From assembly GCA_934454215.1 (NCBI GenBank), contig CAKSGG010000004.1, positions 16,885 through 80,884 of the forward strand: a stretch of DNA of 64,000 bases, in the 5' to 3' direction. Under the pieces are notes generated by a model. That model did not search any database. It was given only the letters and a program-made list of their open reading frames with translations, and was not told where the DNA came from. The translations under genes were made by a program, and so were the position numbers. Source of the stretch: an uncultured Clostridia bacterium (GTDB taxonomy: Bacteria; Bacillota; Clostridia; UBA1381). Shown piece by piece: positions 5,415 to 5,601 of this stretch. Position 1 is the first letter of the stretch; every line of letters starts with the position of its first letter.

Positions 5415-5456
5415 AATCACTATCAAAAAGTACACATTTTGATAGTGATTTTTTAT
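5413..5456. terminator. Bidirectional intrinsic terminator (contains recombination site A)
   Basis: AAAATCACTATCAAAA / TTTTGATAGTGATTTT form a 14-16 bp stem with an 8-nt loop. There is an A-run on the left and a T-run on the right. Confidence 0.75.
5420..5445. repeat. Candidate hix-like recombination site A (12-2-12)
   Basis: CTATCAAAAAGT-AC-ACATTTTGATAG. The half-sites resemble the Hin hix half-site TTATCAAAAACC. Confidence 0.55.
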
Positions 5457-5503
5457 AAGCAAAAATTCGTTAAATAGCCTGTAAAACCTATTTTATACAC
5501 AAA

Positions 5504-5533
5504 TATTATACCAAATCATAGCTAAAATGTCAA
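5504..5533 (-). promoter_or_regulatory. Near-consensus sigma-A promoter on the minus strand
   Basis: The reverse complement reads TTGACA-18 nt-TGgTATAAT. Confidence 0.65.
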
Positions 5534-5575
5534 TGATACGGGGGCAATTACAGTAAATTTTTTTGAAGTATATGA

Positions 5576-5601
5576 TTATCAAATTGTGTACTTTTTGACA
5601 A
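5576..5601. repeat. Candidate hix-like recombination site B, inverted relative to A
   Basis: TTATCAAATTGT-GT-ACTTTTTGACAA. The core GT is the complement of the AC core in site A. Confidence 0.55.

Follow-up and report, generated by a model that had tools for sequence, protein, structure and literature searches.

Among the described systems, the invertases Hin (acting at hix sites), Gin, Cin, and Pin are small serine recombinases that work on 26-bp inverted sites, each consisting of two 12-bp half-sites around a central dinucleotide (a 12-2-12 layout) that gives the site its polarity; Hin flips a promoter in this way, and the Hin/Gin segments are ~1-3 kb long and contain the recombinase gene. 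Sin, with its site resH, and the recombinases Bin, Res, and beta act at sites that lie upstream of the gene, combine crossover and accessory parts, and resolve direct repeats. Mpi, the serine recombinase of the Bacteroides capsule invertons, inverts short promoter segments (~200 bp) of a gut anaerobe and acts in trans on many distant loci. In Clostridia, short invertible regulatory segments are known from the RecV switches of Clostridioides difficile (cwpV, flgB, and cmrRST) and from "group 139" (PMC11892184), which involve tyrosine recombinases at several loci, and the hCom2 inverton survey linked its main Clostridia group to tyrosine recombinases (PMC11892184). A study of RADS tied small serine recombinases of Bacillota to neighboring defense genes, with their role left open and inversion named as merely possible (PMC13552941). 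Here, we describe a locus in a 64,000-nucleotide stretch from an uncultured Clostridia bacterium (contig CAKSGG010000004.1, positions 16,885 to 80,884; hereafter the window, with positions counted from its first nucleotide), in which a small serine recombinase gene (4812-5414, plus strand) is followed by a short segment (5432-5589) that is very probably a genetic on/off switch. We assign a probability of roughly 80% to the reading that this segment is an invertible promoter and that the small serine recombinase encoded next to it, a member of the Sin family, flips it.

The segment is bounded by two 26-bp sites, each of them a 12-2-12 palindrome. Site A, the left crossover site (5420-5445), reads CTATCAAAAAGT-AC-ACATTTTGATAG with its center at 5432-5433, and site B, the right crossover site (5576-5601), reads TTATCAAATTGT-GT-ACTTTTTGACAA with its center at 5588-5589. 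The two centers, AC and GT, are complementary and lie 156 bp apart, delimiting the predicted invertible segment, and A aligns with B better in the inverted register (24/27, 89%) than in the direct register (20/27, 74%). An earlier, sequence-only reading of this DNA had placed both sites at these coordinates, with these sequences, this layout, these centers, and an inverted orientation, and all of this was borne out. The half-site pattern offered there fits all four half-sites and nothing else in the 64 kb: YTRTCAAAWWGT occurs four times in the window, exclusively as the four half-sites of A and B, against 0.33 expected from shuffles (0/100 shuffles gave four), a comparison that is partly circular because the pattern was built from the same four half-sites. 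The family consensus TCAAAANGTNNACNTTTTGA, which was derived from relatives and thus provides an independent check, was matched in the window at zero to one mismatch by A and B only.

Two side observations concern the sites (handles beginning with L denote loci or contigs, and those beginning with P denote recombinase proteins). A lone fifth half-site-like sequence, TTATCAAAATGA, stands at 5625-5636, 37 nt to the right of the site B center; it is perfectly complementary to 5435-5444, is retained in the lineage at 87-99%, and could be either an extra recombinase-binding site or a chance occurrence. In addition, a T/A polymorphism is found at mirror positions of the two sites, namely at 5436 in the right half of A and at 5583 in the left half of B: L007 carries the B-type base in site A, and L003 and L114 have a variant in site B, L003 with the A-type base. 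We considered the variants of L007 and L003 as a footprint of exchange and rejected this explanation, because one central crossover cannot yield them; they are left as polymorphism.

Between the sites, the minus strand carries a sigma-70-type promoter (5505-5533) that consists of TTGACA (5533-5528), a 17-nt spacer, and TATAAT (5510-5505) with the upstream TG of an extended -10 element; it scores 12/12 and points leftward as sequenced. The sequence-only reading had recognized this leftward promoter, although its spacer of 18 nt and its end at 5504 were each off by one. Among relatives whose recombinases are 72-99% identical, the aligned -35 and -10 hexamers form invariant blocks, and conservation of the segment is confined to the sites and these hexamers, the rest of the 130-bp interior being not conserved. 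The window presents the layout of a promoter inverton, that is, inverted repeats flanking a promoter beside a regulatable gene.

Site A is also part of a bidirectional intrinsic terminator (5413-5452), as had been proposed from the letters: a hairpin with a 16-bp stem encloses the site and is followed by a T run. The plus strand folds at -17.7 kcal/mol ahead of T6, and the terminator scan lists the structure as terminator-like on the minus strand. Because one arm of the stem belongs to the fixed left flank and the other to the mobile right flank, the terminator is complete in the sequenced orientation only; folding of the predicted flipped state gives -3.0 kcal/mol for the hairpin, compared with -17.7 kcal/mol as sequenced, and the T run is lost. 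In relatives with a left-pointing promoter, the left site is often lengthened to a long perfect palindrome plus T run, one arm of which comes from the invertible segment, and this palindrome is absent from the flipped copies L134, L047, and L079. Comparison of L135 with L134 reveals the same assembly and disassembly of the terminator. One inversion step both turns the promoter and removes the terminator, and the weak hairpin at site B to which the earlier reading had assigned a place is immaterial. A search of 4400-7500 against Rfam at E <= 1 gave no match, so that the leftward transcript corresponds to no known RNA family. The length of the T run (5446-5452) varies among near-identical copies, being 6 in the window, 7 in most, and 8 in L020 and L029.

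To place the locus in its family, we scanned one genome per species with the recombinase alignment and considered the best 80 loci (60-78% identity), nearly all of which come from metagenome-assembled genomes (MAGs) of Clostridia. Most of these relatives have the palindrome TCAAAAgGT-NN-ACcTTTTGA 2-20 nt past the recombinase stop codon and a second copy 127-257 bp further on. Two sites stand directly after the gene in 47 of the 80 species-level relatives, and the center dinucleotides are reverse-complementary in 46 of these 47. Five center pairs were found, namely AC/GT (or GT/AC) in most loci, AA/TT in L049, L062, and L073, AG/CT in L069, and the palindromic pairs AT/AT (L047, L084, L091, and L109) and GC/GC (L085). 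Since serine recombinases religate through a 2-nt overhang, this co-variation of the centers is what inverted crossover sites demand, and the two inverted 12-2-12 sites with matching centers that mark an invertase substrate are found here. One relative with a typical site (L101) lies on a 3.4-kb contig from a MAG labeled Nitrososphaerota archaeon; the archaeal label is most likely a binning error.

The center-to-center spacings of the relatives fall into separate classes (127, 135-139, 145-148, 155-157, 165-169, and 176-178 bp), one of which includes the 156 bp of the window. In a Rayleigh test on the spacings, the strongest signal is a period of ~10 bp (R = 0.70, nominal p ~ 1e-10); related loci are counted as independent in this statistic, so the p value is indicative, while the separate modes are plain. 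Steps of ~10 bp fit the helical-phase need for synapsis on a small loop. It could be argued that the palindromes arose by chance in AT-rich intergenic DNA and are unrelated to the recombinase, given the high AT content here and the frequency of terminator hairpins behind genes. Yet the excess of half-site matches over the shuffled expectation speaks against chance, and the comparative data have already refuted it, the architecture recurring in dozens of divergent relatives with co-varying centers and inversions.

Both orientations were observed among the homologous loci. In L059 (a Faecalicatena faecalis isolate) and L079 (a MAG labeled Anaerovoracaceae), the flanks are 99.6-99.8% identical and the inner 161 bp are reverse-complemented; likewise, the same element was found in opposite orientations in L034/L035 versus L037 and in L084 versus L109. 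Homologous segments are inverted in L079, L037, L109/L084, L134, L140, L145, and L146, and promoter scoring of the relatives assigned 38 loci to the leftward and 9 to the rightward orientation, some of the rightward calls being marginal. Two sibling lineages, within each of which the contigs share a 100% identical recombinase, are mixed: P0084 (75% identical to the window protein) is encoded by 8 leftward and 2 rightward contigs (L134 and L140), and P0112 (74% identical) by 7 leftward and 2 rightward contigs (L145 and L146) together with 1 from which the segment is deleted (L151). Homologous modules thus occur in both orientations, and the sites, the promoter, and the terminator are present and conserved. 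The earlier proposal that inversion turns the promoter toward the SLOG and tyrosine recombinase genes to the right of the switch is hence supported at the family level, by both orientations, by center co-variation, and by conservation of sites and promoter.

Segments were also lost. Precise loss at palindromic AT centers was observed in L105 and L108 relative to L109, as expected because a palindromic center gives no polarity, and L103 and L077 are likewise single-site relatives with the segment missing. In L151, which has nonpalindromic AC/GT centers, the segment was lost and a hybrid site with one base changed was left, which simple exchange does not explain. Several contigs break at or near the sites: in the window lineage, L008 and L009 end in or just after A, L119 starts in A, and L128, L130, and L132 end at B, and in 8 of the 80 relatives (L031, L046, L053, L074, L075, L080, L090, and L093) the contig ends at most 62 nt from the recombinase stop codon. 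These breaks fit an assembly-graph branch or mixed orientations. We rejected them as proof of heterogeneity, because the T-run polymorphism by A and the variable cargo after B can also break assemblies.

Several points weigh against a working switch at the window locus itself. At identity of at least 98%, 26 contigs span both sites, two others (L007 and L010) reach the segment from the left, and a look-up with the SLOG gene added 4 further spanning contigs (30 distinct in total); all of these are promoter-leftward, as are the 10 contigs of the lineage with the 87%-identical recombinase P0006. Flipped copies therefore number 0/40 in the window lineage (30 contigs at >=98% and 10 at 87%), compared with 4/19 in the two sibling lineages (Fisher p = 0.013), and both orientations are seen in nature for the homologous loci and in none of the 40 contigs of the window locus. 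The window copy may accordingly be strongly biased or locked, or its inversion may be rare. The caveat on the spacing statistic given above belongs here as well. A scan of JGI metagenomes for the predicted flipped left junction gave 0 matches, a negative that is uninformative because this collection is without the element, the either-orientation control having found two unrelated elements only. Reads across CAAAAAGTACACAATTTGATAATCATATAC would support flipping of the window segment 5432-5589.

The same counts favor an explanation in which the region is fixed in the window lineage, an ex-inverton that flips rarely or not at all: site A would serve as a terminator for the recombinase gene and for a ~90-nt leftward RNA, and site B as a recombinase operator for the SLOG/tyrosine-recombinase operon. 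On either strand, the hairpin makes a good intrinsic terminator, and site B differs from the family consensus by one position in its left half (TCAAATTGT). However, sibling sites with similar or larger departures from the consensus do invert, and the 87-100% lineage has retained both sites, their complementary centers, and an intact recombinase open reading frame (ORF), although the remainder of the segment has diverged. The putative small RNA lacks conservation in its body and has no Rfam match. Moreover, L037 is flipped relative to its sister L034/L035, and L034 has the same recombinase/SLOG-like/tyrosine-recombinase layout as the window; minority orientations, in addition, are hidden by consensus assemblies. 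We consider a fixed region unlikely and retain the promoter inverton as the preferred interpretation.

The recombinase gene encodes 200 aa from the ATG at 4812, and public gene calls begin at TTG 4818 (198 aa) or at an upstream start at 4731 (227 aa). The protein matches Pfam Resolvase (PF00239; E 1.6e-25, residues 5-148), its N-terminal catalytic domain and its size place it among the small serine recombinases, and Y7, R9, S11, D37, R69, and R72 are invariant in an alignment of 16 relatives. A C-terminal helix-turn-helix (HTH) gave no Pfam HTH_7 match at E <= 0.001; residues 150-200 are conserved in relatives and align with the C-termini of the gamma-delta and Tn3 resolvases (query 5-195/198). 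Exact look-up of the ATG-4812 and TTG-4818 products returned no match, and relatives were reached by homologue search (>8,000 homologues at E <= 1e-20), plasmid recombinases of staphylococci, enterococci, and Bacillus being ~50% identical. The closest solved relative is Sin (2r0q; E 4e-32, residues 5-159), followed by gamma-delta (E 4e-19) and the Tn3 resolvases, and Gin (3uj3/4m6f) is distant (E 1e-10). The label "Hin/Gin-style" given in the sequence-only reading thus suits the site layout and the outcome, but not the enzyme, which is Sin-like. In NCBIfam, the recombinase reached no invertase equivalog, and its score of 42.8 bits against the Mpi model PRK13413 (cutoff 272) places it outside Mpi.

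The neighboring recombinase is the obvious candidate for the flipping enzyme, because the sites trail its stop codon in most relatives, whatever the cargo, because its closest solved relative is Sin, and because a staphylococcal plasmid homologue has the same site core. In this homologue (50% identical), GTTCGTAAAAGTACACTTTTACGAAC, with the same AAAGT-AC-ACTTT core, lies upstream of the gene, and the shared core ties the site type to the recombinase clade. The sequence forms a single 12-2-12 palindrome at ~1309-1334 of the Staphylococcus aureus plasmid NZ_CP096533.1 (L133); pTEF2 (L154) likewise has a single 12-2-12 palindrome with a related core, CCAACAGGGTATACCCTGTTGG, upstream of its recombinase gene (~5203-5228). 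A palindrome upstream of the gene is the usual resolvase arrangement. In the window, an extended -10 element (TGtTATAAT, 4769-4777) stands ~35 nt upstream of the recombinase start and downstream of a conserved 53-aa ORF (4552-4713) without family match; it is likely the promoter of the recombinase gene itself.

Kinship to the Sin resolvase also speaks for a res-type site that serves element multimer resolution or cargo exchange, in which A would be the crossover site, B an accessory site, and the inversions in relatives by-products. Consistent with this, the neighbors include a RepA_N replication gene and a coupling-protein gene, occasional deletions occur (L105, L108, and L151), and an identical cassette is found with different neighbors upstream and downstream, the downstream junction coinciding with the outer border of site B (compare L144 with L145/L152). 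The locus shares with the Sin/Tn3 systems the sequence kinship (Sin 2r0q, E 4e-32), but it has no compact res site with accessory sites on direct repeats, and the products in relatives are inversions. Both sites are of the crossover type, with inverted half-sites and a 2-bp center, and the direct repeats typical of Sin site II are absent from both. Their centers stay reverse-complementary as they vary, something not required of an accessory site; the 136-157 bp spacing exceeds the Sin res site, which is reportedly ~86 bp long; a conserved promoter lies between the sites; and reversible inversion in otherwise identical DNA was seen repeatedly. A res-type function is thus very improbable, and the promoter inverton again accounts better for the locus. 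Among the contigs that encode the identical recombinase P0112 (L144-L153), the same cassette occurs with two different neighbor sets on both sides. Downstream, the two sets diverge precisely where the right site ends, at the point where GGTA is followed by GACCTTAA in one set and by ATATCAG in the other; the cassette or its cargo seems to have been exchanged at the sites.

Compared with the described systems, the locus shares with Hin/hix and Gin/Cin/Pin the class of enzyme, the 26-bp inverted sites, and the central dinucleotide that sets their polarity, and with Hin the flipping of a promoter; its outer half-site, TTATCAAA, resembles the hix half-site, TTATCAAAAACC. In contrast to these systems, its recombinase falls outside the Hin/Gin clade, matching Sin far better than Gin (E 4e-32 and 1e-10, respectively), its segment, ~156 bp long, is located 3' to the recombinase gene, and the segment shows no evident Fis/enhancer element. 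Fis is not known in Firmicutes. Spacing that is quantized by the helical repeat and a crossover site that forms half of a terminator are further differences. Sin is the closest solved relative, related plasmid recombinases are ~50% identical, and the AAAGT-AC-ACTTT core is shared with the site upstream of the staphylococcal homologue; unlike the Sin-type systems, the window has two inverted crossover-type sites downstream of the gene, which flank a promoter, and inversion is seen in relatives. Mpi shares the flipping of short promoter segments by a serine recombinase, but the window has one site pair in 64 kb, beside the gene, with another inverted-repeat sequence and in another phylum. In contrast to the RecV and "group 139" switches, this first switch of the window is of the serine type with 12-2-12 sites and an adjacent recombinase. 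The RADS recombinases (PMC13552941) likewise belong to the small serine type, are found on mobile elements of Bacillota, and immediately precede variable cargo; the RADS bait EF_B0058, however, is only 33% identical over the catalytic domain and has its palindrome upstream of the gene, and the cargo of the present family is mostly surface proteins, SLOG, and kinases and not classic defense genes.

The working of the switch can be sketched from known serine recombinase behavior. A recombinase dimer would bind each 12-2-12 site, two dimers would synapse across the ~156-bp loop, and cutting at AC (5432-5433) and GT (5588-5589), rotation, and religation would leave the segment 5432-5589 reversed. 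By analogy with Sin and beta, inversion across ~150 bp probably needs a bending protein of the HU type. In the OFF state, which is the one sequenced, the strong promoter would fire leftward into the bidirectional terminator, half of which comes from the invertible segment, and the same hairpin would end the recombinase mRNA. In the predicted ON state, the promoter would face the SLOG and tyrosine recombinase genes and, with the terminator gone, read-through from the recombinase gene would add to the output. We infer that the window copy flips in this manner, that the neighboring recombinase is the enzyme, and that the promoter is active.

The first gene predicted to be driven after inversion is a YpsA/SLOG-family gene (5675-6175, plus strand; Pfam PF06908, E 2.6e-23), which starts 74 nt beyond site B. 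It is followed by an Xer-like tyrosine recombinase gene (6268-7107, plus strand; Pfam Phage_integrase plus a SAM-like N domain) that public contigs call at 279 aa within an ORF running from 6235; its NCBIfam Xer-type matches all lie below cutoff. Domain matches agree with the neighbors named in the earlier reading (Resolvase at 4812-5414, YpsA/SLOG at 5675-6175, and Phage_integrase at 6235/6268-7107). The promoter scan found no good plus-strand promoter within 5600-6235, and the SLOG and tyrosine recombinase genes are probably co-transcribed.

A second inverton (7118-7412), of the same tyrosine-recombinase kind as the RecV and "group 139" segments, lies directly after the tyrosine recombinase gene. 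Its sites, ACCACATAAT-CGAT-ATTATGTGGT (7118-7141) and ACCACATAAT-ATCG-ATTATGTGGT (7389-7412), are complementary at 24/24 positions around a 4-bp spacer, their pattern has 2 matches in the window compared with 0 expected, and a minus-strand promoter scoring 12/12 lies between them (7205->7177). Among near-identical contigs, 12 have the orientation of the window and L006 is reversed, and 5 end at the left site of this inverton or no more than ~10 nt past it. The spacers co-vary between the two sites (L011/L013 and L019). The whole series of serine recombinase, switch 1, SLOG, tyrosine recombinase, and switch 2 recurs in L034, L036, L039, and L045 with co-varying spacers of their own, and the order of the three genes is kept in these four loci and in L123.

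Since no good plus-strand promoter was found from site B to the tyrosine recombinase gene, switch 1 may control the enzyme that flips switch 2. We tentatively extend this to a two-layer cascade on a conjugative element, in which the serine inverton would gate SLOG and the tyrosine recombinase, and the latter would flip the inverton in front of the kinase/FHA/PP2C/EssC genes; switch 1 would then, hypothetically, set the switching rate of switch 2 and not a direct output. In its broader part, the same proposal holds that Sin-like recombinases with 3'-adjacent, helically phased promoter-terminator invertons of ~136-157 bp would make up a large family of portable phase-variation cassettes in gut Clostridia. 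Taken together, this proposal is possible, at clearly less than even odds. In fimS/FimB-FimE of Escherichia coli, the orientation of a promoter inverton similarly affects recombinase gene expression, which parallels the proposed cascade; both fim recombinases, however, are of the tyrosine type and act on the same switch, whereas the serine switch of the window would gate the tyrosine recombinase of another switch. If true, the serine-to-tyrosine cascade would be a natural two-stage stochastic switch.

The module is not described in two inverton surveys (PMC11892184 and PMC11602134), with no matching sequence in the supplementary material covered, and full-text searches for the site core sequences returned nothing relevant. 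No description of the module was found in a literature coverage that is incomplete, so that an earlier one is possible; the variant for which we found none pairs a local invertase of the Sin-like type with a promoter-terminator inverton that is very short and helically phased, and in the window this pair is apparently stacked on an inverton of the tyrosine-recombinase kind. Promoter inversion itself is classic; here, the gene, two sites, a promoter, and a switchable terminator form a compact self-contained cassette within ~800 bp. Such a cassette would give a concrete role to some of the small serine recombinases beside variable Bacillota cargo, a role left open previously (PMC13552941). It fronts varied cargo, including BspA-type leucine-rich repeat (LRR) proteins, pilin-like surface proteins, SLOG, and kinases, and it predicts that conjugative elements in uncultured Clostridia of the gut carry phase-variable surface and secretion functions. 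The ~10-bp quantized spacing and the terminator laid across a crossover site may be usable for small synthetic switches.

The locus sits on a conjugative element, near-identical copies of which are found on contigs of up to 1.2 Mb from many metagenomes. Samples with the element include ERZ15609731, ERZ27287071, SRR31242867, and ERZ15610114, and in the Logan runs ERR7738557 and SRR24884031 the contigs stop at site A; a megablast of 4700-7300 against PLSDB plasmids gave no match. All genes run left to right: a VirD4/TraG coupling protein, RepA_N, DUF5697, and two unknown ORFs precede the recombinase and the switch, and YpsA/SLOG, the Xer-like tyrosine recombinase, a TetR-like regulator, a Ser/Thr kinase, FHA, PP2C, and an EssC-like FtsK protein follow. 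The TetR-like regulator (7469-8095, plus strand; Pfam) is the first cargo gene beyond the second inverton, and the Ser/Thr kinase (8070-10094, plus strand; Pfam) has Big_2 domains and zinc ribbons, its kinase domain matching PADLOC models; defense-model matches among the cargo are confined to kinases, via the kinase domain. In the relatives, the right site is most often followed by a gene for a SLOG protein (6 of 41), a BspA-type LRR protein, a VWA or pilin-like protein, or a zinc-ribbon kinase. Across 8070-18969, the kinase, an FHA protein, a PP2C phosphatase with Big_2, and a 1510-aa protein with FHA and FtsK/SpoIIIE ATPase domains (EssC type) make up a cargo that looks like a signaling and secretion module. 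A second ORF nearly as long as the EssC-type one (1509 aa) is found at 35228-39757.

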